DNA of 63,799 bases, counting the filler, from Candidatus Fermentibacterota bacterium (GTDB lineage: Bacteria; JAFGKV01), in the NCBI GenBank assembly GCA_016928395.1. It is 5 parts of 5 records of this genome, joined end to end, with 100 filler letters (N's around TTAATTAATTAA, not from the genome) between each part and the next. Parts side by side here need not be neighbours in the genome. Positions count along the whole stretch, not along the records: positions 1 to 28,537 come from JAFGKV010000154.1; 4 more parts are not named here. One strand, 5' to 3'. The translations under genes and the position numbers were made by a program. How positions within the stretch are numbered: position 1 is the first letter of the stretch; each line of letters starts with the position of its first letter. The notes under the pieces were generated by a model. It was not told the origin of the DNA and did no database searches. It worked only from the letters and a program-made list of their open reading frames with translations. Shown here in pieces: positions 6,801-24,326 of this stretch.

Positions 6801-8036
6801 TCACACGACAATGGGCGTGACGTGCTTGAACGCGCAAAACGCCAGTGCGCGCTCCCGCACATCACCATGGAGGACTATCTGATGGTTGCCCGGAGCATGC
6901 TCGAGCCATGACTCAACGCTGCCGGCCAACTCCACCTGTGCCATGACGTGGCCGGCCTCGATCCCGGAGGCGACAATCCGGCCCGGCGCGATAAGCAGAC
7001 TCCCGAATCCCGCGCCGAAACGGAGAATGGTCACGGGGCCTTCCCGAAGGCTGCCTTGTAAGGCGGCACCCCGGCGGACATCCGGCTGCATCGCCACCTT
7101 CAATGACATGGGATCATGCAGCATGGTACACGGTGCCGTGCAGTGCGAGAGAGTGAGGGCGTTCGCCGACCGGTCTATCCGCAGGGCGTCAGCAGTCCAA
7201 CTGGGGCCCGAGTTGAGGGCTGAAGCCAGGACCATGGTGAACACCGCCTCCAGGTCACCCTCGCAGCCGGCAACGATGCCCTCATCGTTGAGGAGGCTGA
7301 TGCCCAGGCAGGGAGCGATCCCGCTGTCGAGCAGGTCGTAGCAACGAACCGTCAATGCGGTGAGCTGGTGCGCTTCAATCATGTCTCGCATGGCAAGGTA
7401 GAGCCGCGCCGAATCAAGGAAGTCGGCATCGGTGGTCTCAATGACTGCGGCCTGGGACGCGAGCGAGTGAACCACGGCGTGCGCCTGGGAGGCGGAAACG
7501 AGATCATAGCGTTCCAGCAGCTTTTCCAGCTTGAAGTTGGCGATGCGTGTCTTGAATTCCCTGAAGGAGTGAATCCCATGGGACGTCAGTAGCCATGGGG
7601 CGGGCGCACCAAAACAGCCGATGACTCCCTCGTCGATGCGCGCGATGGCCGCGGCGATGTGGGCGAACCCATCAATGACCGACACCGCCTCGTCGCCGCC
7701 CAGCGGCGCATATGCGACCTTCAGGGGAAATCGAGTCTTCAGGGCGGCATAGGCTTCCAGAGTCGCGGCCAGTGAGTTATTGTCGGGATTCGCCCACAAG
7801 AGAACTGGCTTGGCAGTCTGGAAGACAATTTGGTTGATTATGGCCTCGGTCCCTCCGCTGGCCACCAGGATGACCGCGCCGTCGATGGCATCCCTTCGGG
7901 CGGAGACCGCCCGTTCCGCCTGGAGGATGTTGCTTACGTAGTCGATGACACCAAGCCCTCCTGCGGCCGCGGCAACCCTCTGCCGTAGGGTCTCCATATC
8001 CTCAAGCTCTGAGAAGACTGCGAAGAAGCCTAGCAT
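6801..8036 (-). CDS. L-fucose/L-arabinose isomerase-like protein
   Basis: SGGTE, NSLAA, PWL, VRC, AGCEGD, HCT and GNHQ motifs; RBS GAGGTGG before ATG 8036. Confidence 0.7.
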   Translation of the reverse strand: MLGFFAVFSELEDMETLRQRVAAAAGGLGVIDYVSNILQAERAVSARRDAIDGAVILVASGGTEAIINQIVFQTAKPVLLWANPDNNSLAATLEAYAALKTRFPLKVAYAPLGGDEAVSVIDGFAHIAAAIARIDEGVIGCFGAPAPWLLTSHGIHSFREFKTRIANFKLEKLLERYDLVSASQAHAVVHSLASQAAVIETTDADFLDSARLYLAMRDMIEAHQLTALTVRCYDLLDSGIAPCLGISLLNDEGIVAGCEGDLEAVFTMVLASALNSGPSWTADALRIDRSANALTLSHCTAPCTMLHDPMSLKVAMQPDVRRGAALQGSLREGPVTILRFGAGFGSLLIAPGRIVASGIEAGHVMAQVELAGSVESWLEHAPGNHQIVLHGDVRERALAFCAFKHVTPIVV

Positions 8037-8468
8037 GGGTACCACCTCATTGTGAAGCGCCGCCCCTGTCTCTCCCGAAGAACGTCGTATGTGCGCACCG
8101 TAGCACACCACGCCGGAAAATGACGATGCGGAGGAGGATCTATTCAGTATCAATCGCTCAATACCGTATCAAGAAGTCCACTTGTCAACGATCATCACTG
8201 TATTTCGGTTGTTGTGGATCGATTCTGTTTATCCGAAGATCCGGCAGACACGGAGAACCCGTCTTCTTGCGCATAGACCGACTTTTGGCATTCTAACGAA
8301 ACGCAGATAACCTACATCAAGATAGAGACGAGATCCATGGAGGTATCGTACGGGGGATGCATTCACACGGTGATAGCGCGGGTGCCTACGGTGCTCTGTC
8401 GTGACTCACAATGCCCGCTATCGTGGAGTCGTCTGCAAGCCCTCGGCCCACTCAAGACTCGAAAGGTA

Positions 8469-8496
8469 TTGACATAGGTAACAGGCATGGTAAACT
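8469..8496 (+). promoter_or_regulatory. sigma70-type promoter of the ATP-grasp/GNAT/KamA operon
   Basis: TTGACA (8469-8474), 16-nt spacer, TAAACT (8491-8496) with an extended -10 TG. Confidence 0.7.
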
Positions 8497-8502
8497 AGAG
8501 GC

Positions 8503-8614
8503 GATTAAAGAGGAGTTGACGGCGTTGCGAGAGCCGCTGCTGCCCCACCGGGCGAAGAGTCTCCGCGGCCCCTCAGACTGCCGTCCTGCTCAAGAAGACG
8601 GAGACTCTTCGGTG
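8503..8614 (+). promoter_or_regulatory. Structured 5' leader with a perfect 13-bp stem sequestering the RBS (candidate cis-regulatory RNA)
   Basis: CGAAGAGTCTCCG (8553-8565) is the exact reverse complement of CGGAGACTCTTCG (8599-8611), which contains GGAG and abuts the GTG start; additional nested stems are present. Confidence 0.55.
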
Positions 8615-9697
8615 CGCCTTGCCCTTGCGTATAATGCCAAACCAACTGCCAGAAGCGCCATCGAGGCTGTACACCCTGAAACGGTCCTCGACGAGGAGGA
8701 GGAACCTCCGCCGCTGACTGCGGGCGTCGGTAGCAACGACGACGCCTACGCCGAATGGGATGATGCGCCCACAATTCTGGCGCTGGCGGGGGCTCTTGCC
8801 AATCAATTCGATGTTTCACTGGTTGAAGCTGATGCACGCTTCCCTTCCCGCGTACAACGCCTCAAGCCGGACATTGTGTTCAATGTTGCCGAAGGAATGG
8901 TCGGTCCGGCCCGGGAGGCCCACGTGCCCGCAATCCTGGAGATGCTGCGCATCCCGTATAGCGGGTCAGACTCTCTCACCCTGGCGGTGTGCCTCCACAA
9001 GGCGTGGGCAAATGTTATCCTCGCTGCCAACGGTGTGCCCACACCGCGCCATCGAGTGATTGAAGGCATTACTGATCTTGATAGCCCGTGGGAGATATTG
9101 TTTCCGATTATCCTCAAGCCGCTGCACGAAGGATCCAGCAAGGGCATTCGAGATGATCAGGTGGTGGGCTCCCTCTTCGATTTGAGGGTGAGGGCCGCGC
9201 GCCTTCTCCGGGATTACCATCAGCCCGTTCTGGCCGAGCAGTTCCTTCAGGGCCGCGAGTTCACCGTGGCAATTTTAGGGAATCCTCCTGACGTGCGAGT
9301 ACTGCCGCCGGTGGAACTGCGGTTCGATGCCTTTCCGCCGGGCACAACCCCGATCTACTCCTGGGAGGCGAAGTGGTTATGGGATCGACCCGATTCTCCG
9401 CTTGACGTGTTCCAATGCCCCGCCGGCCTGTCTTTTGCCCAGCAGGCGGAGATCGAACAAGTCTGTCAGGCTACGGCGAGGATTCTGCGCATCAGGGATT
9501 GGGCGCGAATCGACGTTCGCATGGATGCGGCCGGGGTGGTACACGTCATGGAAGTCAATCCCCTCCCGGGGATGCTGCCCGATCCCGACGCTCATTCCTG
9601 CTATCCCAAAGCCGCCCGAGCCGCCGGGATGACTTATGACGACGTGGTCTTGGCTGTGGTCGACGCGGCGTGCCGACGATGGGGGCTTCGCTCATGA
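8612..9697 (+). CDS. D-Ala-D-Ala ligase-like ATP-grasp enzyme 1
   Basis: DIVFNVAEG, IPYSGSD, KPLHEGSSKGI, GREFTV, YSWEAKW and RID...EVNPLPG; true start probably GTG 8612 (MRLALAYN), downstream of the promoter. Confidence 0.88.
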   Translation: MRLALAYNAKPTARSAIEAVHPETVLDEEEEPPPLTAGVGSNDDAYAEWDDAPTILALAGALANQFDVSLVEADARFPSRVQRLKPDIVFNVAEGMVGPAREAHVPAILEMLRIPYSGSDSLTLAVCLHKAWANVILAANGVPTPRHRVIEGITDLDSPWEILFPIILKPLHEGSSKGIRDDQVVGSLFDLRVRAARLLRDYHQPVLAEQFLQGREFTVAILGNPPDVRVLPPVELRFDAFPPGTTPIYSWEAKWLWDRPDSPLDVFQCPAGLSFAQQAEIEQVCQATARILRIRDWARIDVRMDAAGVVHVMEVNPLPGMLPDPDAHSCYPKAARAAGMTYDDVVLAVVDAACRRWGLRS

Positions 9698-10698
9698 GAC
9701 CGCAGGTAGTCCTGCTCTTCAATGAACCAGTGAATACCGAGGAACCGTCTGAGGTAGGAGTCATCGGTGAAGCCGAGGATATTGTCTCAGCACTGGAATC
9801 CAAAGGACACGCCGTGGAATCAAGGCCAGTCTCGCGCCAGACGCTGCTTCCGACCCTGAGTGAGTTGGAAGACCGCCGGGAATCAGTGGTCGTGTTCAAC
9901 CTGTGCGAAGGACTCAACGGTCATTCCCACCACGAGCCGCTGCTGGCGGGTCTCTTGGAGCTTCACAGGCTCCGCTTCACGGGGAGTCCCTCATCGACGC
10001 TCTCGTGGGCACTGGATAAGCGCGTTGCCAAGGCCATTCTTGGCTTCGCGGGAGTCCGCACTCCGGGAGCACAGGCGTTCTGCACCGCAGGCTCCATGGA
10101 CGAGATAAAGGAGTTCGCTCTGCCGGCCATCGTGAAGCCTGTCCGAGAAGACGGCAGCCTGGGCATCACCGCCGACTCGGTGGTGCATACCGCAGATGAA
10201 CTTCATGCCCGCATTCGCTGGGTCCTGGAGACCTATCGCCAGCCAGCTTTGGTGGAAGGATATCTGACGGGCCGGGAATTCAACATGTCTATCCTGGGCG
10301 AAGGAGACGACGCCAGACTTCTGCCGGTGGAGGAGATCCTGTTTGAGGGGTATTCGCCGGGAGAACCGCGCCTGCTCTCCTACGACGCCAAGTGGCGCGT
10401 GGGAAGCCATGATGATGTCCGTACCATCCCGAAATGCCCCGCCGCAGTGGATGGCAACCTGCGTGATGCGATGGAATCGCTGGCACTCACCACGTACCAA
10501 GCTTTCGGATGCAGGGACTATGCCCGAATCGACATCAGACTCGACGGCGGTGGAACACCCCATGTGCTGGATGTGAACCCAAACCCCGATATCTCACGGG
10601 TGGCCGGCATGGCCCTGGCGGTCACACAATCGGGCATGTCCTATGAAGAGTTTGTGGACAGTGTCGTGGAGGCAGCATGGAACCGAACGCCGTACTAG
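9694..10698 (+). CDS. D-Ala-D-Ala ligase-like ATP-grasp enzyme 2
   Basis: VFNLCEG, FTGS, KPVREDGSLGI, GREFN, SYDAKW and RIDIR...DVNPNPD; ATGA overlap with the previous gene. Confidence 0.88.
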   Translation: MRPQVVLLFNEPVNTEEPSEVGVIGEAEDIVSALESKGHAVESRPVSRQTLLPTLSELEDRRESVVVFNLCEGLNGHSHHEPLLAGLLELHRLRFTGSPSSTLSWALDKRVAKAILGFAGVRTPGAQAFCTAGSMDEIKEFALPAIVKPVREDGSLGITADSVVHTADELHARIRWVLETYRQPALVEGYLTGREFNMSILGEGDDARLLPVEEILFEGYSPGEPRLLSYDAKWRVGSHDDVRTIPKCPAAVDGNLRDAMESLALTTYQAFGCRDYARIDIRLDGGGTPHVLDVNPNPDISRVAGMALAVTQSGMSYEEFVDSVVEAAWNRTPY

Positions 10699-11168
10699 GC
10701 CCTTTGCACTCTGACCTTGTCGAGGACGTCGTGGCGATGGTAAGGGACACGGGCGTGTTCCGTCCCTGCGAGGTAGACGTGGCCGAGGAACTGCTCGAAG
10801 CGGCTGCCCTGGAGGGAGACGAGTCGGGTTACCTCGTACGGGTTGCTCTGGTGCAGGACAAGGTGGCGGGGTATGCATGCTGGGGCGCCACGCCGTGCAC
10901 GGAAGGCACCTTCGACCTGTACTGGATCGCCGTATCACCCGCCTATGGTCGACGCGGCGTCGCCGGGGCGCTCCTAAATGAGGTCGAGCAGGATGTAGTC
11001 TCACGCGGAGGCCGGCTGCTCATCGCCGAGACATCGAGCACCGAGCCGTACGAGGCTGCGCGTTCGTTTTACGTTCGAAGGGGCTTCCGGGAGGAGGCCC
11101 GGATTCCCGACTTCTATAAGCCGGGAGATGCGAAAGTGGTTTTCGTCAAAACTCTCTTGCAAAGCTAG
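10677..11168 (+). CDS. GNAT family N-acetyltransferase
   Basis: DLYWIAVSPAYGRRGVAG acetyl-CoA motif A, ETSS, FYVRRGF and IPDFY. Confidence 0.9.
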   Translation: MEPNAVLGPLHSDLVEDVVAMVRDTGVFRPCEVDVAEELLEAAALEGDESGYLVRVALVQDKVAGYACWGATPCTEGTFDLYWIAVSPAYGRRGVAGALLNEVEQDVVSRGGRLLIAETSSTEPYEAARSFYVRRGFREEARIPDFYKPGDAKVVFVKTLLQS

Positions 11169-11193
11169 AGAGTCAGGAGGGAGTGGAGGAACG

Positions 11194-12315
11194 ATGGAAC
11201 TCTGGCAGGAGTTCCTTGCCTCGGCGATTCGTACGCCCGCACAGCTCAGGCGATACTTCCCTGAGATCGATGTGGCGGCATTGGAGCGGGTTGCCGAGGT
11301 GTATCCTATGTGTGTCACCCCGTACTATCTGGGCCTTGTCCAGCGGATTGACGATCCCATAGCGAGACAGTGTATACCTGATCCCGTCGAGCTGGATTCG
11401 TTCGGTCTGGTGGCTGACCCGCTGGCGGAAGAGAGCATGAGCCCCGTGCCCTGCGTCGTGCATCGGTACCCGGATCGCGCGCTGTTTTTGGTCTCATCCC
11501 AGTGCGCCATGTACTGCCGGTTTTGCACGAGAAAGCGAAAGGTGGGCACGGACTGGGCCATCACCGATGAGTTGCGTCGCGAGGGCCTCGCGTACATTGC
11601 GCGAACCCCCGAAATCCGTGATGTGGTGGTCTCCGGGGGGGATCCGCTCATGCTGTCGGACGGCCTCATCGAAGGCGTTCTGAGCGGTCTACGGCGAATC
11701 CCCCACGTGGAGGTCATCCGCCTTGGCACTCGGACGCCCTGCACCCTGCCCCAGCGGATCACGCCTCGGCTAGTGCGCATGTTGCGGAAGTACCATCCGC
11801 TCTACGTGAACACGCATTTCGAGCACCCCAGGGAACTCACACCGGATGCGGTTCGGGCATTGACGCGTCTTGCGGATGCCGGCATTCCTCTGGGGAATCA
11901 GTCCGTGCTCCTGCGCGGCGTGAACGATGACCCCGCCGTGTTCCTGGAACTCAACAGAAGACTGCTGAGCGCGCGGGTGAAGCCCTACTACATGTTCCAA
12001 GCCGATCTCGTAGACGGGACCGCCCATTTCTGCACCCCGATTGAGACCGGCCTTGATGTGATACGCGGTCTCCGAGGCCACACGTCGGGGATGGCTGTTC
12101 CCCATTTCGTCATCGACTCGCCGGGAGGCGGCGGCAAGATTCCGATCCTCCCCCAGGAGTACGTCCGTCGGGAGGGGCGGCAACTCATTCTTCGGAACTA
12201 CCGTGGGCAGATCCACCTCTACTCGGATCGCACCGCAGAGCCGAACCCGTGTGAGGAGATCGCCGGGATGCCTGACCTGATCGAAGCCTTTGAGCCCTTG
12301 GCGGCCATAGGCTAG
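11194..12315 (+). CDS. kamA: KamA-family radical SAM/PLP aminomutase (lysine 2,3-aminomutase-like)
   Basis: HRYPDR, CAMYCRFC, SGGDPL, NQSVLL, YYMFQAD and VIDSPGGGGKIP (PLP lysine); RBS GGAGGA before ATG 11194. Confidence 0.9.
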   Translation: MELWQEFLASAIRTPAQLRRYFPEIDVAALERVAEVYPMCVTPYYLGLVQRIDDPIARQCIPDPVELDSFGLVADPLAEESMSPVPCVVHRYPDRALFLVSSQCAMYCRFCTRKRKVGTDWAITDELRREGLAYIARTPEIRDVVVSGGDPLMLSDGLIEGVLSGLRRIPHVEVIRLGTRTPCTLPQRITPRLVRMLRKYHPLYVNTHFEHPRELTPDAVRALTRLADAGIPLGNQSVLLRGVNDDPAVFLELNRRLLSARVKPYYMFQADLVDGTAHFCTPIETGLDVIRGLRGHTSGMAVPHFVIDSPGGGGKIPILPQEYVRREGRQLILRNYRGQIHLYSDRTAEPNPCEEIAGMPDLIEAFEPLAAIG

Positions 12316-12327
12316 ACCTTTTCAGAT

Positions 12328-12363
12328 CACAGGGCGCCCGAACGTTTGTTCCGACGCCCTGTG
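12328..12363 (+). terminator. Stem-loop after kamA (possible terminator or 3' stabiliser)
   Basis: 9-bp inverted repeat CACAGGGCG/CGCCCTGTG; no U-tract. Confidence 0.35.
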
Positions 12364-12406
12364 CGTGTCTGGCCGACTCTGAGCGACGCCAACCCGCAGG
12401 TAAGGC

Positions 12407-12469: not shown

Positions 12470-12793
12470 GTGCCAGTGCGATTCGGAGGAGTGACAGCGG
12501 TGGCGGTGATGCTGGCATGCGCCCCGCCGGCGGCGGTGCTGCCGCCTCAGTCGGCGGCGCCGGCCCAGGGCGACGTCGTCGCGCCGCCACAAGCTCCCAC
12601 CATTGCGGTGGCGGCGAAAAAGGGACGTACGTACGCCAATATCCGCCTATTCGCGGACAGCAGAAGCCCAGTAATCGCGAAAGTGCCCGTGGGGACCGTG
12701 CTCAACACCTTTGGCTGTGATGGCCCGTGGCATCAGGTCCAAGTTCCCGCCACAGGGGCCCTTGGCTGGATTCACTCAGTCTACCTCGAGTAG
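12470..12793 (+). CDS. Small lipoprotein with a bacterial SH3 domain
   Basis: MLAC lipobox-like signal, Pro/Ala linker, ANIR...S.VI..V..G..L...G.W..V...GWI pattern; start uncertain. Confidence 0.75.
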   Translation: MPVRFGGVTAVAVMLACAPPAAVLPPQSAAPAQGDVVAPPQAPTIAVAAKKGRTYANIRLFADSRSPVIAKVPVGTVLNTFGCDGPWHQVQVPATGALGWIHSVYLE

Positions 12794-16473: not shown

Positions 16474-17623
16474 CGCATCCTCCTTCTTCGTGCGCGTCGT
16501 CGTTGACGTAGGCATTTGTGTTGTGAGTCAGAATCCTTTGCACTGCCGCAGGCAGGTTCTCCACCACTACGACATCCCCGGCGCCTTCCCGCGCCCAGGT
16601 CACTCCGTGTCCGGTCTTCACGAGAATGCCGGTAGCCCCGATGCGGGCGGCGGCCTCCATGTCACTCTGGTGATCGCCAATCACCACCGAACGGGCAAGA
16701 TCAAGGCCCAGATCGTCCCGGGCGAGGAAGAAGAGCCCGGGACGGGGTTTCCTGCACCCGCATCCGTCCTCGGGCCGGTGGGGACAGACATACACTGCCG
16801 CAACACGTCCACCCGCATCTCGGATGCGTTCCTCCATGAGACGGTGAATGGTGCGAACCTCCTCGTAGGAGGCCAGTCCGCGTCCGATGATGCTCTGGTT
16901 CGTGACGATAACCACCGGAAGGTCATGGCGAGCCAGTTCGGCCAGTGCCTCGAGAGCACCGGGAAGGAACTGGAACTGCTCCCATCGGGTGACATACCCA
17001 TCGCCCGGGCCCAGAGCATTAATGACACCGTCACGGTCAAGGAACACGGCGGGTCGAAAGACGGGCGCCCGCCTCACCCGTTCCCGCAGTGCCACCGCTG
17101 CGGCATGCCCGATGACCAGATGCGCGTCTTCAATGCGTTCCATGCAATCATCGGGGACGATCACCGCAAGATCCACCATGCCGGCCAACCGGCCTCCCTG
17201 GAATCCCGTGAGGCCCGCAGTCACGGCGCCCATCGCCGCGGCATGCTCCACCGCACGCAGCACATTAGGAGAGTTACCGCTGCCGCTTATGGCGATCACC
17301 AGATCACCCGGCCGCACCAACCCCGCCAGTTGTTCCACAAAAACCCGCTCGTAGGAGGTGTCATTGGCCCACGCCGAGATCAAAGGCACATTATCCACCA
17401 GGGAAATCACCCTCAGGCGGCGATGCCCCGGGCTGGCTGTTCCCTTGCCGAGATCACATGCGAGGTGAGCCGCCGCTGCCGCCGAGCCGCCGTTGCCCAG
17501 CAGGAAAACGGTGGCATCGCGGCGCCAGGCTTTCTCCAGTTCTTCCACCAGGCGATCGATGTCGTCTCGCGGCATGTCCTCCAAGACTCGCGCCACGGCG
17601 CGAAGGTAGCTCTCACTGTTCAC
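16448..17623 (-). CDS. gmhA-gmhB: Fused phosphoheptose isomerase (GmhA, SIS) and heptose-1,7-bisphosphate phosphatase (GmhB, HAD-IIIA)
   Basis: N-half GNGGSAA, ANDTSY and ISGSGNS; C-half FLDRDGVIN, TNQS, CPH..CGCRKP and IGD. Confidence 0.88.
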   Translation of the reverse strand: MNSESYLRAVARVLEDMPRDDIDRLVEELEKAWRRDATVFLLGNGGSAAAAAHLACDLGKGTASPGHRRLRVISLVDNVPLISAWANDTSYERVFVEQLAGLVRPGDLVIAISGSGNSPNVLRAVEHAAAMGAVTAGLTGFQGGRLAGMVDLAVIVPDDCMERIEDAHLVIGHAAAVALRERVRRAPVFRPAVFLDRDGVINALGPGDGYVTRWEQFQFLPGALEALAELARHDLPVVIVTNQSIIGRGLASYEEVRTIHRLMEERIRDAGGRVAAVYVCPHRPEDGCGCRKPRPGLFFLARDDLGLDLARSVVIGDHQSDMEAAARIGATGILVKTGHGVTWAREGAGDVVVVENLPAAVQRILTHNTNAYVNDDAHEEGGCDAEGLSFH

Positions 17624-18627
17624 TCACAACCTCCACCTCTTCCCATCTGCAGGGCCAGGGCTCGCTGCACCACGTCAATCTCGGCGTAAGGACGCCCCAT
17701 GAGCCGTGCAAGATTGGCGCGAACAAGCCTCGCAAGGAGCAAGCCGGACAAAAGGAGACGATGCGCCAGCAGGGCGTTGCGCCCATAGTGCTTCCGTATG
17801 AACCGATGCTTTCCCTTGTAGAACTGCAGCACCAAACCTCTGCCCCAAAGCTTGCTCACCGTCTGGCTGCCGAAGTGGGTCACCAGAGCATCAGAGAGAA
17901 ACCACGTCTCCCATCCTGCTTGACGAAACCGGTAGCACCAGTCGGTCTCCTCGTGGAAAATCGGGTATCCCTCGTCCTTGAGACCGATCTGCTCTACTGC
18001 ACTCCGGCGCACCAAGATGCAGGCGCCAATCACCCAATCAACCCCGCACGGGCTGTCGTGATCCCAGTACTCCAGTACCGCATGCCGGCGCCACGAGTTG
18101 GGCATACGCCGCCAGGGTAGCAGATGCTGCAGCACCAGACGCCTGTTGGTCAGGAAGTTCCGGCAGGAAGGTTGCAGCGTACCGTCGCCGTTGAGAAGCC
18201 GCGGGCCGACCACAGCGACCCGGGGATTCTCCCGTAGGAAGGCCACCAACCGATCCACGGCACCGGCATGGAGGACTGTGTCGGGGTTAAGGCAGAGAAG
18301 GAACTCCCCGCGGCTAACCAGAATCGCCTGATTGGTGGCGCCCGTGAACCAGTTGTTGAACCGATTGGCGATGAGCATCACATCCCGGGCATGCTCCAGG
18401 GCCTCCACCGAACCATCGGTGGAGCCGTTGTCCACCACGATGATCTCGTACGGAATCTCCACGGTGTCCCGCACGGAACCCAGGCATCCCAGCAGAAGGT
18501 CTCTGCTATTGGTGTTCACGATCAGGATAGAGAGGGGGAGTGAGGGGGTTATCCGGGGCAGTGCCTCCTCCGGCGCACAGGGAGAGGAGCCCAAGGTCGC
18601 GGCAGTGATGGGACGAGCTGACGGCAT
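17620..18627 (-). CDS. Glycosyltransferase family 2 (WbbL/GT2-like)
   Basis: VVDNGSTDGS, LNPDT, GACILVRR and EETDWCYR. Confidence 0.92.
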   Translation of the reverse strand: MPSARPITAATLGSSPCAPEEALPRITPSLPLSILIVNTNSRDLLLGCLGSVRDTVEIPYEIIVVDNGSTDGSVEALEHARDVMLIANRFNNWFTGATNQAILVSRGEFLLCLNPDTVLHAGAVDRLVAFLRENPRVAVVGPRLLNGDGTLQPSCRNFLTNRRLVLQHLLPWRRMPNSWRRHAVLEYWDHDSPCGVDWVIGACILVRRSAVEQIGLKDEGYPIFHEETDWCYRFRQAGWETWFLSDALVTHFGSQTVSKLWGRGLVLQFYKGKHRFIRKHYGRNALLAHRLLLSGLLLARLVRANLARLMGRPYAEIDVVQRALALQMGRGGGCE

Positions 18628-18646
18628 TCCCTATGGCCTGCCTTCT

Positions 18647-19717
18647 TTACGAGTGAATCAAGGCCGGAACGTACCGTCGCCATCGGCGAAGGCGCTCGCC
18701 AGGAGTCGGGCTGAACGTGCAGTTCATGATGCTGCAGCCCCTGGTGCAGGCCCGCACCAGCGCGCGCCCTCTGGCGGCTTCATCCCCGAACCACTGGCGG
18801 CGGATAGGGCCGTCATTCACATGGCCGAACGGCGGGAGATAGGGACAGAAGCGGAGATCGCCGGAAGGGCTGATTCCCAAAGATGCAACGCCAACGGTGC
18901 AGGGGACGATTTGCCGTTCCGGGTCCTCATAGTAGCGAGGCAAGAGGGCCAGCTGCCGCCAAGGATTCAGCACAGGCCAACCGCTGCGAGAACCCGCGCG
19001 AAGCTGCTCCACCACGGCTCTGACCCGGGCCGGTTCCACCCCCAAGCCTAGCGCGCGATACCATGATGAATCGCGGGCCGACCCAAACGGCTCTCCTAAG
19101 GGCTGCACCGTGAACCCACCGATTCCCTGGGCGGCGGTCCATTGGGCCAGGGGGGCTATCTGATCCACGTTCAGACTGGTCAGCACCGCGGCAATCCGAA
19201 GCCGGCGGCCCATGCCGGCCGCGCACAGATCCTTGGCCAGATCCATGACGCGCCGGTGGGCGCCGGGGGCACGGTGCAAGGCATCATGGGGGCCGGAATC
19301 CAGAGAGTCGAGAGAGAGCGTAAGCGATACCAGGGGCCACGCGACGACGTCGGCCGGGTCAATATCCGGCGCACCATTGGTCACTACCGAAGGAAGAAGC
19401 CCACAGTCGGCGGCGATCTGTACGATGTCGCCCAGGTCGGAGCGGAGGAATGGCTCTCCTCCGGCCAGCCCGACGTGCGTTGGCCCCATCCACACCGCCA
19501 GTTCATCGAACACCTCTCGCCACTTTTCCGGGCCGAACTCATCATGCTGTTCGCGCCAGACCTGGCAATGCATGCAGCGATACGTGCAACGACTGGTGAG
19601 GCCTATGGCCACCGACAGGGGAGGCCCAAAAGGGGTCAGTCTCGTGCGGCACGCCCACGCCAGCATGCTGTGCCACAGGTGAGTCACCCCCGCCGCGGCC
19701 ATGGTGCGGCGGTTCAC
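18647..19717 (-). CDS. Radical SAM protein with SPASM/Twitch-like C-terminus
   Basis: CTYRCMHC, GGEPFL and TNG; C-terminal CTVG...GDLRFCP...CTRGCSIMNC. Confidence 0.88.
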   Translation of the reverse strand: MNRRTMAAAGVTHLWHSMLAWACRTRLTPFGPPLSVAIGLTSRCTYRCMHCQVWREQHDEFGPEKWREVFDELAVWMGPTHVGLAGGEPFLRSDLGDIVQIAADCGLLPSVVTNGAPDIDPADVVAWPLVSLTLSLDSLDSGPHDALHRAPGAHRRVMDLAKDLCAAGMGRRLRIAAVLTSLNVDQIAPLAQWTAAQGIGGFTVQPLGEPFGSARDSSWYRALGLGVEPARVRAVVEQLRAGSRSGWPVLNPWRQLALLPRYYEDPERQIVPCTVGVASLGISPSGDLRFCPYLPPFGHVNDGPIRRQWFGDEAARGRALVRACTRGCSIMNCTFSPTPGERLRRWRRYVPALIHS

Positions 19718-21486
19718 CTGATATACCCGAGAACCCGTAGCTGCTCGATGATGGCGGCGTCGCCCGACTCTCCGCTCTCCGCAGTCCGCCTGCCGACACG
19801 GGGTCCATAGCTTGGAACGGTGGGGATCTGCTGGCGAGCAAATCGCGGTGAGAATGCGTCACTCAACACTTTTCCCTCCAGGTCATCGGCCACAGGAAGC
19901 CCCAGGACGGCCAAAACAGTGGGCGCGATGTCATGAAGGCGGGCGCCGACAAGCCGAGCGCCTCGCTTGAACGGGGCGCCATGAAGAATCACGATGCCCG
20001 GCGGCCCCTCGGTGTGCTGCCCTGAGGCTCCGGGCTGCCATCGGTTCCATCGGGTGAGCCCGAAGCATTGAGGGCCGAGTTGAAGGGAATCCGACAGCGG
20101 TGCATGCAGGTTGATGGTCGCGGCCACATCCGCCTGGGCGAAGACATAGACCACGAACTCCCCGGCCTTGTAGCTCTTGTCGTGGGCGGTGAGCATCCGC
20201 ACATCCTTGAAGATCGGCTCGCCCGAGGGCATGGCCTGGAGAGCGGCCAGATCGGCGGTCAGCTTCGCCGCCGTTGGCTCCAGATCTGCGGCAGCGACTG
20301 TCCCGTCGGGTTCACGACCCACTACGGAGACAGTGAGCAGGCGCATCTGGCGAGACTCGGCATGAACATAGGCGCGGGATCGGGCAAGATCGGGGCTGCC
20401 GTCAGGCTTTAGGGTGAGCCACCCCATGTCTTGCAGCAGACCCTCAACATCGAAGAGATCGTTGATACACCGTTCGGCCGTGCTGCTCTCCATTCCGTGG
20501 TCTGATAGGATCACCACGGGCGCAGACCTGTGCCTGCAGAGCCGGCCAACTACGCCGTCCAGAAACCGATAGTACTCCGGCACCAGCGGCGCAAAGATGC
20601 GCTGCTCTTCGGGATCCAGCGTGAAATCCTGGGGCCGCCAGTACTTCCACAGCAGGTGTTGACATACATCCAAATACCAGAAGTACGGTGCCACGACCCG
20701 CAGGGACCGATCACGATCCATGAGATAGTGCGTGATGCGCTCTGTCGCATAGTCCATTGCCATGATGCGGCGATACGCGCTAATGCGCTCACCCAGATCA
20801 TCCAGATACCGTGCCACATCTGGCACTGAGCCGCGCCACGGCACCGAGCCTTCCTCGACGCCACGCCGCCACGCAGCGAACTGGGCGCGAACCTCCCTGA
20901 TAAGCCGTTCCTGCTCCGGGGGCAACGCACCGTCAAACACGCCGGCCTGGGCCAGGTCCTCTCGAAGACCCGGGGGAAAGGCGGTGTGCTCGACTGCCGC
21001 GTCATGCACGCGGTCTGTCACCATGTACCCGTCAATGGTCTCCGCCGGCCAGGTGGCCCACCATCCCACGAATGCAGATCGCACGCCGTGATCCGTGCAG
21101 ACGTTCCACAGCGCCGGAACCAGACGTTCGTTGGAGGATAGGGCCGACAGCATCTCATGCTCTCCCCGTTCATCCAATTTGAGAACCCGGAAGGAGATTC
21201 CGTGCTTGTCAGGAGACTGCCCGGTAGCGATGGTGGTCCAGAGGGCTGGCGAGGCCGTGGGCACATAGGTCGCGAGCTCCCCGGCCGTACCGGTTCTGAC
21301 GAACTCGGCAAGGTTCGGCAGTTGGCCTTGGGCCATCAACTCATCCATTGAATCCCAGTTGGCGGCATCCAAACCGATGATCAGGAGCGGGCCTCGTTCG
21401 CCCCCACAGCGGGCGCACAAGACGAGCGCAGCCAGCATGGCAGCGCGCAACAAGCCACACCGAAACGGTTTCAGTGGATGGGCCAT
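19714..21486 (-). CDS. Alkaline-phosphatase-superfamily phosphodiesterase/phosphotransferase, exported (lipoprotein-like)
   Basis: IIGLDAA, SPALWTTIATG, WWATWP, D..QH, SDHG and DIAPT; C-terminal LRVLGYI; RBS GAGGAGG. Confidence 0.85.
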   Translation of the reverse strand: MAHPLKPFRCGLLRAAMLAALVLCARCGGERGPLLIIGLDAANWDSMDELMAQGQLPNLAEFVRTGTAGELATYVPTASPALWTTIATGQSPDKHGISFRVLKLDERGEHEMLSALSSNERLVPALWNVCTDHGVRSAFVGWWATWPAETIDGYMVTDRVHDAAVEHTAFPPGLREDLAQAGVFDGALPPEQERLIREVRAQFAAWRRGVEEGSVPWRGSVPDVARYLDDLGERISAYRRIMAMDYATERITHYLMDRDRSLRVVAPYFWYLDVCQHLLWKYWRPQDFTLDPEEQRIFAPLVPEYYRFLDGVVGRLCRHRSAPVVILSDHGMESSTAERCINDLFDVEGLLQDMGWLTLKPDGSPDLARSRAYVHAESRQMRLLTVSVVGREPDGTVAAADLEPTAAKLTADLAALQAMPSGEPIFKDVRMLTAHDKSYKAGEFVVYVFAQADVAATINLHAPLSDSLQLGPQCFGLTRWNRWQPGASGQHTEGPPGIVILHGAPFKRGARLVGARLHDIAPTVLAVLGLPVADDLEGKVLSDAFSPRFARQQIPTVPSYGPRVGRRTAESGESGDAAIIEQLRVLGYIR

Positions 21487-21497
21487 CCGCGACCTCC

Positions 21498-22466
21498 TCA
21501 CCCGGTAGAATCCACCCAGAGACGCCGCCCTGCGACCCGCCACAGAGCTCGTCGAATATCATGTACGATGGGATGATACTTCCACCACACTGCATCGCAG
21601 GATGCGCACAGAGGAAGACCCTCGCGGCGATTGGATGCGACACGTTGCCGTACCTCCATAAGCCGGTCACCGTGCCACACATCCGTGAGGCTCTGGCGGA
21701 CGAGATCGCCCACCGGATGCGCCCCGTTCAGGTCGGCGCAGCACAGGAACACTCGCCCATCCCAGCCCACGCTCATGCCCTGCCACAGGGGTTGGCATGG
21801 GTGGTAGCGGCGGCCTCGGAGCACGACTTCCTCACTGCGAAGCTGTCCTCCCCACCCGTGGGGCGCAAGACGGAGTATGCGATCCGGTCCCGGAGAACCA
21901 AGGAGCGCAGCCACGCGGGAGTCCGAGATGACTGCCTCATCAGGAGGCTGGATGATCTGGAGCGTGGTGCGCGGCCCGCGCCCGCCCAAGCGACGGCGCA
22001 TCTCGTGAAAACCGCGAACGTTCTCAACCATCGTATCCAGATCCGCACCGCGCTGGACTTGGCGAATCCGCTCATTGTCCACGCCATTGATGCTGAACGA
22101 CACATCGTCCAGTCCTGCCTCGATGAGGGATCGGGCCCGATCCCCGTCCAGCAGCATCGCATTGGTGTGCAGCACGGTGCGCAATCCCCGTGCTGAAGCA
22201 GCGGCAACCAGGTCTCCAATGCTCGGATGCAGGAGCGGTTCTCCCGCGAGGAAAAACCTGATTTCACCCACCCCGGCATCCGCGGCCTGGGCCAGGATGG
22301 ATTCCGCCAGAGAAAGCTCAAGAAGCCCTCCCGGCCGCGCCGAAGAGGCAACACACCACCTGCACGAGAGATTGCACCGATTGGTGGGCTCCAGGTTCAG
22401 GTAGGCCGGCGCGCCGAGAATACCAGACCGATGGAGATACCACTGGAGACGCCAGGCAACGGCCAC
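21498..22466 (-). CDS. Radical SAM/SPASM(Twitch) domain protein
   Basis: EPTNRCNLSCRWC, GEPLLHP and TNA; CQPLW...DGRVFLCCAD...CASC. Confidence 0.9.
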   Translation of the reverse strand: MAVAWRLQWYLHRSGILGAPAYLNLEPTNRCNLSCRWCVASSARPGGLLELSLAESILAQAADAGVGEIRFFLAGEPLLHPSIGDLVAAASARGLRTVLHTNAMLLDGDRARSLIEAGLDDVSFSINGVDNERIRQVQRGADLDTMVENVRGFHEMRRRLGGRGPRTTLQIIQPPDEAVISDSRVAALLGSPGPDRILRLAPHGWGGQLRSEEVVLRGRRYHPCQPLWQGMSVGWDGRVFLCCADLNGAHPVGDLVRQSLTDVWHGDRLMEVRQRVASNRREGLPLCASCDAVWWKYHPIVHDIRRALWRVAGRRLWVDSTG

Positions 22467-22469
22467 GGT

Positions 22470-24326
22470 TCAGGGCGCGGCGTCGGCGCCTGTCATCAGA
22501 CAGGCCGCTACCACGCGCACAGCCGCAACGTCAAGGGGAGCACCGCCCTGTCCCACCACCCTGCACAGAGTGAGATCGGCGTCACCGACGTGCACCTGGC
22601 TGACCGTGACATCAGCACGCACCTGGAGATCGGATATGCACGACGGGATGCCGTGCCCCTGTTCCATGGCAACGGCCATGAGGGCAGCCACGGGAGTACC
22701 TTCGTCGTTCTGCGTGAATTCGTATGCCACTACGGGGTTGGTCGTTGGCTGCCCGAGATCGGCAATCCCCTCCACAACCTGGCTGGCCAAACGGGTGAGC
22801 GACACCATGTCCTGCTGGCTCATGCCCAGGCGGGAAAACTCGTCCATGGAGTAGAAAACTTGGTCAGCCAAGGCCTTCTGGCGATCGGAAAGGCTGGCTT
22901 CTATGCCTTTCAACCGGGTAGTTTCCATCCGGCGCATACCCTCATCGAAGTCCCGGAACGCGGGGAAGACCTCGCGGATCCTCTCCTTGATAGCCAGGTA
23001 CACCCCCTCGGTGTCCTCAAACTGCCCAAGATCGACAGAGATGTTCATGATGAAGAAACGCTGGTCTCGCACTGTTCGGGCGGGCACTACCGACCCGATG
23101 CTCACGCCTGGAATGCTCTGCAGCAGTTCCGGCAACCTTTGTGCGGGCCTGATTTCGGCCTGGGCCGCAGCATACACCACTATGACCTTGAACCCGGCAG
23201 TGGTCGTTTCCCGGGAAGTAAGGGCAATGTAGACCTGGGTGAGACCACTGGTGCCCTGTTCCTTCATGAGAAAGGGAATGACCGCACGGGCATACTGCTC
23301 GAATCCGCCCCGGGATTCGATGCGCTTTGCCCAGGCTGCTCGCCGCCCGGTAATCAACTCGGTGAGTTTGCGTTCCAACTGGGCATGGTGGAGTTCGGTC
23401 AGGGTCCGCCCCTGCCCTGCGCCAATCTCGAGCCGGATAAAGACCAGTGCGTCTCTGGTGGTGAAGTCAATGAGGTGATACTGCTCGTAGAACCCCAGCG
23501 TCTCGCCTACCACCCGGAGACAATCCTCCACTGATACGTCGCCTCTGAGGCCAACCACCGTGATGCAGGTGCGGGTTTCCCGCATGGCGCTGCGGGGCTC
23601 GACACTGACCACGCCGAGGCCGCCCGAGTGTCGGACCTTCTCCAGGAGCCGATAGTTGGAAACCACCTGATAGGCCAACTCCTGGGGCGGCCACGCCATC
23701 ATGTACTCGTCTGACCGTCCTCCAAAGAACTTCGCGCACTCTCCCATGGGGTCGGTGATCTCCTGGAGCTCATGGTCGTTACACATGCGTTCCAGCTCTT
23801 CGATGACATGTGTCAGGACCTTGAGCTTCTTTGCCTCCCTCGCCAACAGAATTGCCTTTGCCCGCCGGCCTACGCTCAGCTTTCTCAGGTGCGCTACAAT
23901 GTCGTCCAATTCCCCATCCAGCCGCGCGATCTCCTCGTCGCTGGAAAGGCCCAGCGCCATGACGAAGACGCCGATTTCGACCTTCTTGTCTTGAAGCACG
24001 AAGCCATGAGCGAATTGGACATTCCAGCCTCGCTCGTGGACGACACCCAGACACACTTCGCCCATGCCCGGCCAGTCATCGGACATAGCCGCCAGGGCCA
24101 CGACGTGCCGGAACCGTCCCTTGACCAAGGGTCGATAGCGCAGGATCTCCACCGCGACGCCTCGGGGACTCGCCCGCCACGTGGCATATGCCGACCGCAA
24201 GAGTTTGATCTCGCGGCGTGACGGAAAGAAGGCCCGCGGAGCCTCCAGCGTCAGCTCGCTGACACAATCAAGGGGCGAGTCAGGCGGGGAGCCTTGACGT
24301 GTCACAGGCATCTCCTCGCAGGTCAT
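22470..24326 (-). CDS. Hypothetical protein with probable repeated ACT-like modules
   Basis: 618-aa ORF in an operon; DDWPGM...GWNV and FFGGRSDEYMMAWPPQEL segments resemble GlnD/NAD-GDH ACT regions. Confidence 0.55.
   Translation of the reverse strand: MTCEEMPVTRQGSPPDSPLDCVSELTLEAPRAFFPSRREIKLLRSAYATWRASPRGVAVEILRYRPLVKGRFRHVVALAAMSDDWPGMGEVCLGVVHERGWNVQFAHGFVLQDKKVEIGVFVMALGLSSDEEIARLDGELDDIVAHLRKLSVGRRAKAILLAREAKKLKVLTHVIEELERMCNDHELQEITDPMGECAKFFGGRSDEYMMAWPPQELAYQVVSNYRLLEKVRHSGGLGVVSVEPRSAMRETRTCITVVGLRGDVSVEDCLRVVGETLGFYEQYHLIDFTTRDALVFIRLEIGAGQGRTLTELHHAQLERKLTELITGRRAAWAKRIESRGGFEQYARAVIPFLMKEQGTSGLTQVYIALTSRETTTAGFKVIVVYAAAQAEIRPAQRLPELLQSIPGVSIGSVVPARTVRDQRFFIMNISVDLGQFEDTEGVYLAIKERIREVFPAFRDFDEGMRRMETTRLKGIEASLSDRQKALADQVFYSMDEFSRLGMSQQDMVSLTRLASQVVEGIADLGQPTTNPVVAYEFTQNDEGTPVAALMAVAMEQGHGIPSCISDLQVRADVTVSQVHVGDADLTLCRVVGQGGAPLDVAAVRVVAACLMTGADAAP

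Follow-up and report, generated by a model that had tools for sequence, protein, structure and literature searches.

Four coupled genes in a Candidatus Fermentibacterota genome

The DNA analysed here is a stretch of 63,799 nucleotides from Candidatus Fermentibacterota bacterium JAFGKV01 (assembly GCA_016928395.1), composed of five parts joined by filler letters and referred to below as the window. On the plus strand, between positions 8612 and 12315, it contains four translationally coupled genes, which encode two Ddl-like ATP-grasp ligases (lig1 and lig2), an acyltransferase of the GNAT superfamily and a KamA-family aminomutase dependent on S-adenosylmethionine (SAM) radical chemistry and pyridoxal phosphate (PLP). 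We describe this operon, its conservation in other genomes and the pathway that its four products may form.

The gene lig1 (8612-9697, 361 residues) begins with a GTG codon, within a longest open reading frame (ORF) of 8411-9697. This start was retained because the orthologues share the N-terminal consensus MRVALAYN, because the sequence GGAGA lies 9-13 nucleotides upstream of the GTG and because a promoter-like site would otherwise be intragenic. The 67 open codons in 5' of this start (8411-8611, plus strand) are probably noncoding, since they have no counterpart in the orthologues and contain the promoter-like site. The gene lig2 (9694-10698, 334 residues; ORF 9670-10698) starts with an ATG that overlaps the lig1 stop codon as ATGA. 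The GNAT gene (10677-11168, 163 residues, an acyl-CoA N-acyltransferase, CoA being coenzyme A) overlaps the end of lig2 by 22 nucleotides. The aminomutase gene (11194-12315, 373 residues) lies in a frame open from 11128; its ATG at 11194, which leaves a gap of 25 nucleotides after the GNAT gene, opens the sequence MELWQ, shared by 80% or more of 64 orthologue rows. A preliminary description of this DNA, made from the sequence alone, had already noted the tight coupling, and every junction figure that it gave was reproduced.

The same description placed the four genes behind one promoter. A sigma-70-like promoter candidate is indeed present at 8469-8496 on the plus strand (TTGACA-16-TAAACT with a TG extension, a consensus match only). 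The scan returned two sites against 1.0 +/- 1.0 in shuffled sequences, so that this part of the claim is weaker than first presented. A stable stem-loop without U tract follows the aminomutase stop codon (12323-12371, plus strand). Its folding energy is -27.9 kcal/mol (z -3.13, one of 200 shuffles folding equally well) and it is likely to mark the end of the operon. A riboswitch or other RNA upstream was considered and rejected: Rfam gave no match in the whole window at the gathering score, at 8100-8700 with E up to 1, or in 16 of the 80 related loci presented below. A role in anti-phage defence was also rejected, PADLOC returning no family for the four operon proteins.

Sequence features of the four enzymes

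Both ligases contain the domain PF07478 (Dala_Dala_lig_C), with E-values of 2.4e-28 for lig1 and 1.5e-26 for lig2, and their relatives in the PDB are exclusively Ddl and Van ligases (alignments to 5D8D and 2DLN). They nevertheless score below the curated cut-offs of the models for D-alanine--D-alanine ligases, with 162.6 bits (lig1) and 125.7 bits (lig2) against 243 for the Ddl subfamily model NF002378, and 128.6 and 107.7 bits against 245.65 for TIGR01205. The omega loop reads EAKW in lig1 (SWEAKWLWD) and DAKW in lig2. The tryptophan takes the place of Tyr216 of DdlB, and is invariant in 48 lig2 rows and conserved in at least 95% of lig1 rows. In Ddl enzymes the substrate is contacted by Tyr216, Ser150 and the pair Ser281-Leu282 (numbering of DdlB). 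In comparison with Escherichia coli DdlB, lig2 retains the lysine of the VKP motif, the omega-loop lysine, Arg255, Asp257 and Asn272, and differs by the changes Y216 to W, S150 to G, G276 to D and S281/L282 to A/G; at the position of Glu270 the window has an aspartate where at least 90% of the 48 orthologues have a glutamate. As for lig1, it retains the motifs EGSS, RID and E.N, as well as PG and a Ser-Cys pair situated behind a four-residue insert. Its invariant AEWD motif occupies the position of the substrate-binding glutamate of Ddl and is preceded by an insert of about 30 residues. The catalytic motifs of both ligases are conserved in at least 95% of orthologues (80 rows for lig1), and lig2 evolves faster than lig1.

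Judging from the retained catalytic positions (those shared by lig2 with DdlB and the motifs of lig1), the two ligases look like active amide-forming enzymes. The residues suggest that lig1 has a Ddl-like site for two amino acids and that the acceptor site of lig2 is remodelled. The identification of either protein as a canonical Ddl was rejected, given the scores under the curated cut-offs, the altered contact residues and the genomic context, since no mur/dcw cluster is found beside the operon in the window. The preliminary description had presented them as divergent Ddl paralogues outside such a cluster. The EAKW and DAKW loops, the low model scores and the flanking genes (lepA, a hemW-like gene, an SH3-domain gene and ispH) agree with this view. 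The contrary case, in which the two enzymes just make D-Ala-D-Ala, fits poorly with sequences that are unlike those of plain Ddl ligases.

The aminomutase consists of the Pfam domains LAM_C and Radical_SAM, and its sole solved relative is the Clostridium lysine 2,3-aminomutase 2A5H (4e-111). The CxxxCxxC motif is kept (CAMYCRFC, aligned with CSMYCRHC of 2A5H), as is the GGGGK motif whose lysine binds PLP (PGGGGKIP, aligned with PGGGGKTP). The segments QCD and VVDAP of 2A5H become QAD and VIDSP, with both aspartates retained; these two residues bind the epsilon-amine of lysine and are replaced by lysine and asparagine in glutamate 2,3-aminomutase. All these elements, including the whole QAD and VID.PGGGGKIP segments, are conserved in at least 95% of the 64 orthologue rows. 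This supports the lysine-type assignment made earlier from YYMFQAD and VIDSP. The zinc site of the clostridial enzyme is absent, also as described before: VNDC is changed into VNDD, the alignment stops at residue 368 of 2A5H, and the remaining tail holds one cysteine, so without any C-terminal cysteine cluster. The protein passes the general family model TIGR00238 (277.6 bits for a cut-off of 199.2) and remains under each substrate-specific cut-off. The highest score is obtained with AblA (432.5 bits, cut-off 525.4), followed by the models of glutamate aminomutase (396.4, cut-off 650), arginine aminomutase (321.1, cut-off 600) and EpmB (231.4, cut-off 369.3). Membership of the glutamate, arginine and EpmB groups was rejected on these values.

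The GNAT protein matches PF00583 at 9.7e-12. The CoA-binding motif of this superfamily is R/Q-x-x-G-x-G/A, to which its sequence RRGVAG corresponds. Its best NCBIfam match is RimI (38.6 bits for a cut-off of 86.4), and the ESM Atlas returned generic GNAT clusters only. The identification as AblB was rejected: the model TIGR03827 gives 15.8 bits for a cut-off of 205.1, and the protein, as had been remarked, is shorter than AblB (163 residues against a model of 266 positions). The closest structure is 2R7H (1.7e-36 over residues 20-156), whose entry is named 'putative D-alanine N-acetyltransferase of GNAT family' and which presumably comes from a Desulfovibrio strain. To our knowledge no functional data exist for 2R7H; the name chosen by the depositors suggests that its gene is also located beside Ddl-like genes.

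Conservation, fusions and neighbourhoods of the four genes

A search of a protein collection with lig1 gave 6851 matches among 8000 scored candidates. The named relatives come from Eisenbacteria, Deferrisomatales, Thermodesulfobacteriota, Acidobacteriota, Bacteroidota and Kryptonia, and are all annotated as Ddl or ATP-grasp. An alignment of 16 lig1 sequences was then scanned against one genome per species, where at least 593 stretches matched and at least 579 were confirmed. Unless stated otherwise, the locus counts below refer to the best 80 of these at least 579 genomes with a lig1 relative, the other 499 or more lying outside the sample. The four window proteins were compared with the 80 loci by tblastn and the loci were classified by script.

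The order lig1, lig2, GNAT and KamA on a single strand is observed in 63 of the 80 loci. All four genes are found in another order in two loci (L017 and L070), and two more (L036 and L058) display lig1, GNAT, KamA and a divergent ligase. In six loci the contig breaks off within 3.4 kb downstream of lig1. Finally, seven are incomplete despite sufficient room: three contain lig1 and lig2 only (L042, L066 and L072), two contain lig1, lig2 and GNAT (L049 and L057), L007 has lig1 alone and L050 has KamA and lig1. Among the 50 loci where all four starts could be placed (by a heuristic choice), 48 have gaps of at most 50 nucleotides at both the lig2-GNAT and the GNAT-KamA junctions. The identity to the window proteins ranges from 46 to 69% for lig1 (median 50), from 34 to 76% for GNAT (median 43) and from 46 to 85% for KamA (median 56); it is 32-62% for the regions assigned to lig2. 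The carriers are distributed over about ten phylum labels, including Bacteroidota, Ignavibacteriota, Acidobacteriota, Myxococcota, Thermodesulfobacteriota, Planctomycetota and Nitrospinota. In the closest locus (L001, from a Candidatus Eisenbacteria metagenome-assembled genome, MAG) the flanking genes are syntenic too, so that the window probably derives from a related organism. The operon is real and strongly non-random, and the survey of gene neighbourhoods suggested in the preliminary description comes out in favour of co-conservation.

A few loci contain cluster genes that are split or interrupted by an in-frame stop (L002:9065-11621, L060:9269-10360, L019:10498-11528 and the GNAT regions of L027 and L051). 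In these long-read-style MAG loci they may be either pseudogenes or assembly errors.

All four components also occur in natural fusions with one another. Thirty relatives of the GNAT protein longer than itself were listed, and 21 of them are fusions of an ATP-grasp ligase with a GNAT (487-556 residues, ligase half first), the ligase half being closer to lig2 by score in 20 cases. The locus L070 contains an additional lig2-like::GNAT ORF of 579 residues. Longer relatives of lig1 gave 231 matches, of which 120 (P0151-P0270) were listed; among these, two are lig1::KamA fusions (P0191 and P0268, with about 49-52% identity per half), one is a lig1::lig2 fusion (P0157) and one has another architecture. 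The 116 other proteins of this list, about 660-790 residues long, form a large family with two ATP-grasp units in tandem (tandem double ATP-grasp proteins), in which both halves are 35-43% identical to lig1; the named sources are MAGs of Myxococcota and Bdellovibrionota. The nine remaining longer GNAT relatives (P0124, P0133, P0136, P0142, P0143, P0145 and P0147-P0149) carry a PF00850 domain, of the histone-deacetylase/acetylpolyamine-amidohydrolase type, fused to a GNAT that is 39-47% identical to that of the window, which would bring acetylation and deacetylation together in a single protein. The forms of about 750 residues have an extra N-terminal region that looks GNAT-like by eye, and the named sources of this set include Leisingera thetidis and Hyphococcus.

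A quick IQ-TREE analysis was realized with 77 ligase domains, four long branches being unreliable. A single branch (SH-aLRT 94) separates the lig1 sequences from the lig2 sequences, and matching sub-clades are observed on its two sides: the window with L001, L003 and L004; L018 with L024 and L076; L042 with L066 and L072; L049 with L057; L055 with L061; and L030 with L039. The KamA-fused ligases group with lig1. Seven GNAT-fused ligase domains were analysed, and five of these lie within the lig2 group, as does the C-terminal half of P0157; the GNAT-fused ligase of L070 also belongs there, on a long and unsure branch. The N- and C-terminal halves of the tandem proteins constitute two separate clades. 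Taken together, the fusions and the tree indicate an ancient duplication, a co-inherited pair of ligases and two functional partnerships, one between lig1 and KamA and one between lig2 and GNAT.

To characterize the neighbourhoods, 1041 ORFs from the 80 loci were clustered, spurious ORFs of the opposite strand (components 7 and 8) being ignored. The commonest neighbour beyond the four families is recG (29 loci). The other recurrent ones (plsY, gpsA, dnaG, ispD, priA, queA and tatC) are lineage-specific; subunits of a V-type ATPase adjoin the cluster in Aminicenantes, and an M24 aminopeptidase lies downstream in eight loci. The existence of a conserved fifth gene was therefore rejected, and the four-gene module stands alone, because its flanking genes are unrelated housekeeping genes that vary by lineage. 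The genes that recur beside the cluster in the 80 loci include neither efp nor epmA, the rest of these genomes not having been searched.

The variant loci are informative. A SAM-dependent methyltransferase gene follows lig2 in L042 and L072 and follows GNAT in L049 and L057. In the last two its best match is a PmtA-like N-methyltransferase (144.5 bits, beneath the cut-off). In these four loci, which all lack KamA, the N-methyltransferase occupies the place corresponding to that of the aminomutase. A third, RimK-like ATP-grasp gene precedes lig1 in L049 and L057, and is the only one of the ligases matched, weakly, by the model of cyanophycin synthetase. In L017, L042, L049 and L057 the gene immediately upstream, in the same orientation, encodes a pyruvoyl-dependent arginine decarboxylase, and L042 also carries a gene of the agmatinase family. 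On account of these N-methyltransferase variants and of the arginine decarboxylase and agmatinase neighbours, the module can be said to be associated with enzymes providing or altering uncommon basic amines (beta-lysine, agmatine, N-methylation). The complete order in L049:1458-6560 and L057:6298-11176 is arginine decarboxylase, RimK-like ligase, lig1, lig2, GNAT and PmtA-like enzyme, with no KamA within the locus; a second GNAT gene is present in L057 at 11268-11792.

In the window itself, the upstream flank encodes, on the opposite strand, a 450-residue isomerase-like protein, lepA and a HemN/HemW-like radical-SAM protein, and the downstream flank encodes a small SH3_3 protein, ispH, a Big_5 protein and an ornithine carbamoyltransferase. 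The divergent 450-residue protein (6801-8153, minus strand), encoded upstream of the cluster in just one other locus, L001, weakly resembles sulfoquinovose isomerase and the central domain of L-arabinose isomerase (69.6 bits for a cut-off of 700). The SH3_3 protein (12470-12793, plus strand), situated in 3' of the hairpin, has a hydrophobic N-terminus. It also follows KamA in L001 (76% identity) and does not do so in other lineages. Further away, a run of genes on the minus strand (17620-24326) encodes a GT2 glycosyltransferase, a radical-SAM protein, a type I phosphodiesterase-like protein, a radical-SAM/SPASM protein and a 618-residue protein without Pfam match; it could be a separate biosynthetic or modification cluster.

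Proposed pathway, alternatives and relation to known systems

We consider it very probable that the four genes constitute one pathway, and probable that beta-lysine is an intermediate of this pathway. The complete proposal, that of a four-gene cytoplasmic pathway leading to a small N-acetylated pseudo-di- or tripeptide of beta-lysine, is plausible and is put forward tentatively. The preliminary description had outlined such a pathway. Its premises are supported by the co-conserved unit, the lysine-type aminomutase, the GNAT distinct from AblB, the non-canonical ligases and the fusions. The product that it put forward (a di- or tripeptide, or the modification of a cell-wall or protein target) and the heterodimer that it suggested for the two ligases are candidates. 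The pairings of lig1 with KamA and of lig2 with GNAT in fusions, the N-methyltransferase variants and the recurrent arginine decarboxylase are new with respect to that description.

We infer the following sequence of steps. Going by its conserved residues, the aminomutase would convert L-lysine into beta-lysine by radical chemistry involving the 4Fe-4S cluster and SAM, with PLP. The ligase lig1 would then form an acyl-phosphate at the expense of ATP and link beta-lysine by an amide bond to a second amino acid; this step is proposed because of the lig1::KamA fusions and of the Ddl catalytic set retained in lig1 (among others the glutamate of AEWD and the Ser-x pair, which in Ddl hold the two amino-acid substrates). 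Since at least 20 protein clusters show lig2 and GNAT fused to each other, the two are expected to work together: one of them would create a second amide bond, and the other would cap the molecule with an N-acetyl (acyl) group taken from acyl-CoA. In lig2, the remodelled acceptor site would suit a substrate that differs from a plain alpha-amino acid. The outcome would be a small, basic, N-acetylated pseudo-di- or tripeptide containing beta-lysine and retained in the cytoplasm. By analogy with N-acetyl-beta-lysine and N-acetylglutaminylglutamine amide (NAGGN), whose logic it would follow, its most likely role is that of a compatible solute or of a polyamine-like basic metabolite. A bolder extension, which we regard as speculative and rather unlikely, is that of a new class of metabolites, made without ribosome or non-ribosomal peptide synthetase by anciently duplicated Ddl-like ligases. 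In at least ten phyla, such N-acetylated, cationic oligo-amides of beta-lysine would stand in for polyamines, act as counter-ions of nucleic acids or protect against stress, and sister pathways would swap in agmatine or add N-methylation.

Several observations weigh against the proposed pathway or reduce its support. KamA and GNAT are dispensable in some lineages, since the seven loci with sufficient room lack at least one gene. The co-occurrence rate is that of the best lig1 scorers, the best 80 of at least 579, and the link with arginine decarboxylase comes from four of the 80 loci. The GNAT-fused ligase P0150 scores better against lig1 than against lig2 and is placed on a long branch beside the C-terminal halves of the tandem proteins; moreover, the ligase tree is a quick version. 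According to the record titles, the MAGs that hold the loci were obtained from groundwater, soil, peat and lakes, which are not obviously saline sites. No conserved transporter or regulator recurs near the cluster in the 80 loci, and no riboswitch was found in the window or in the 16 loci examined for one. The housekeeping context, of a constitutive kind, is as compatible with a cofactor-like or modifying role as with an osmolyte.

This last point leads to the possibility that a macromolecule is decorated, beta-lysine or an acetylated peptide being ligated to a carboxylate or lysine of a protein (in the manner of RimK, LysX or EpmA), to the peptidoglycan stem or to a surface polysaccharide. 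The apparently unregulated context near genes of translation and replication (lepA in the window; recG, dnaG, priA and queA in the other loci) agrees with it, as do the RimK-like third ligase of L049 and L057 and the RimI model as best match of the GNAT, even if that score is less than half of the cut-off. There is also the precedent of a TupA-like ATP-grasp enzyme, unrelated to the ligases of the operon, that is required for a fimbrial modification and has relatives predicted to add amino acids to polysaccharides, according to PMC13419641. We nonetheless judge this decoration unlikely. Among the genes recurring next to the cluster in the 80 loci no candidate target and no EpmA-like gene were detected, the EpmB model falls well short of its cut-off, Pfam detects no extra target-recognition domain in the four proteins, and the residues by which Ddl binds two free amino acids are retained in lig1. 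A polymer would be another outcome: with one carboxylate and two amines, beta-lysine could chemically undergo head-to-tail ligation by ATP-grasp enzymes, and the ligases would then repeatedly build a polycation of beta-lysine (or an alternating one), comparable to cyanophycin or to the side chain of streptothricin, capped or regulated by the GNAT and serving in place of polyamines or as a store of nitrogen. Both ligases have relatives in the tandem double ATP-grasp family, the arginine decarboxylase and agmatinase neighbours and the GNAT fusions with a domain of the acetylpolyamine-amidohydrolase type provide links with polyamines, and the M24 peptidase could degrade such a chain. This peptidase is however restricted to certain lineages, no primer-binding or polymerase-type extra domain is seen, and the cyanophycin synthetase model recognizes the RimK-like ligase alone, so that a polymeric product, including one of the cyanophycin or streptothricin type, seems improbable to us.

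The identity of the amino acid itself can be questioned, because the aminomutase falls below all the substrate-specific models (AblA, glutamate and arginine), lacks the zinc site of the clostridial lysine enzyme and has, in variant loci, relatives of its operon associated with arginine-derived agmatine. The product would then incorporate beta-ornithine or beta-arginine, a version that overlaps with the proposed pathway. As the top scores go to lysine enzymes (AblA and 2A5H) and as both aspartates of the epsilon-amine site are nearly invariant, another basic substrate has a small probability. The operon would finally lose its unity if it combined an AblAB system with spare ligases of the cell wall making D-Ala-D-Ala or D-Ala-D-X. 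AblA is the top NCBIfam model of the aminomutase, the PDB relatives of the ligases are all Ddl or Van enzymes, and the adjacent KamA and GNAT genes mirror a classical ablA-ablB pair such as Pcar_1401/1402 of Pelobacter, described in PMC3543383. Yet the lig1::KamA and lig2::GNAT fusions cross the supposed boundary, the gene order is kept in most loci, and the context is not that of a mur/dcw cluster. In addition, the GNAT fails the AblB model by score and by length, and the ligases fail the Ddl cut-offs, have Trp for Tyr216 and, in lig2, lack the serine that binds the second D-Ala as well as Gly276. Two unrelated functions are thus very improbable.

The pathway proposed above would matter beyond this genome. 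Beta-lysine has few established niches: one osmolyte, the modification of elongation factor P (EF-P), lysine fermentation and some antibiotics. At present the genes of the operon carry the annotation 'D-alanine--D-alanine ligase', 'GNAT' or 'KamA family', and the unit is widespread, lig1 relatives being present in at least 579 species-level genomes. Identifying the product would thus correct the annotation of hundreds of 'Ddl' genes and enrich what is known of the physiology of numerous uncultured lineages from the environment by a new small molecule or a new modification. If the proposal is true, it would also supply ATP-grasp ligases that accept beta-amino acids and are useful for the synthesis of beta-peptides. 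The statement of the preliminary description that no product is established for this combination agrees with the open literature, in which we found no description of the four-gene set or of its product; an earlier prediction from the comparative genomics of amidoligases may lie outside this coverage.

Four known systems can be compared with the operon. Like the Ddl and Van ligases, lig1 and lig2 have the PF07478 fold and keep the ATP/Mg-binding and catalytic Arg, Asp and Asn positions; they differ from them by their longer omega loops, by the tryptophan at the position of Tyr216, by the inserts of lig1 and the contact changes of lig2, and by their inclusion in an operon with KamA and GNAT. The EpmA/EpmB system of EF-P also has a KamA-family enzyme without the zinc site and C-terminal domain of the clostridial aminomutase, and beta-lysine is there, as we propose here, destined for an ATP-dependent ligation. 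In contrast to that system, the ligases of the operon are of the ATP-grasp type instead of being LysRS-like, and the aminomutase misses the EpmB cut-off. The AblA/AblB system, which makes N-epsilon-acetyl-beta-lysine in methanogens and some bacteria, shares with the operon the adjacency of a lysine-type aminomutase and a GNAT, whereas the operon possesses two integral ATP-grasp ligases, fused elsewhere to KamA or GNAT, and its products miss both the AblA and the AblB cut-offs. The synthesis of NAGGN, an osmolyte of the N-acetylated dipeptide type, relies on Ngg, a bifunctional protein with GNAT and ATP-grasp parts, together with AsnO. The lig2::GNAT fusions recall this physical coupling of an acetyltransferase with an ATP-grasp ligase; unlike Ngg, they have a ligase of the Ddl type and the order ligase-GNAT, and the operon includes a second ligase and an aminomutase. 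By analogy, the operon can be viewed as an AblAB-like pathway that belongs neither to the AblAB nor to the NAGGN systems, being extended by two ligations and following a logic similar to that of NAGGN synthesis.

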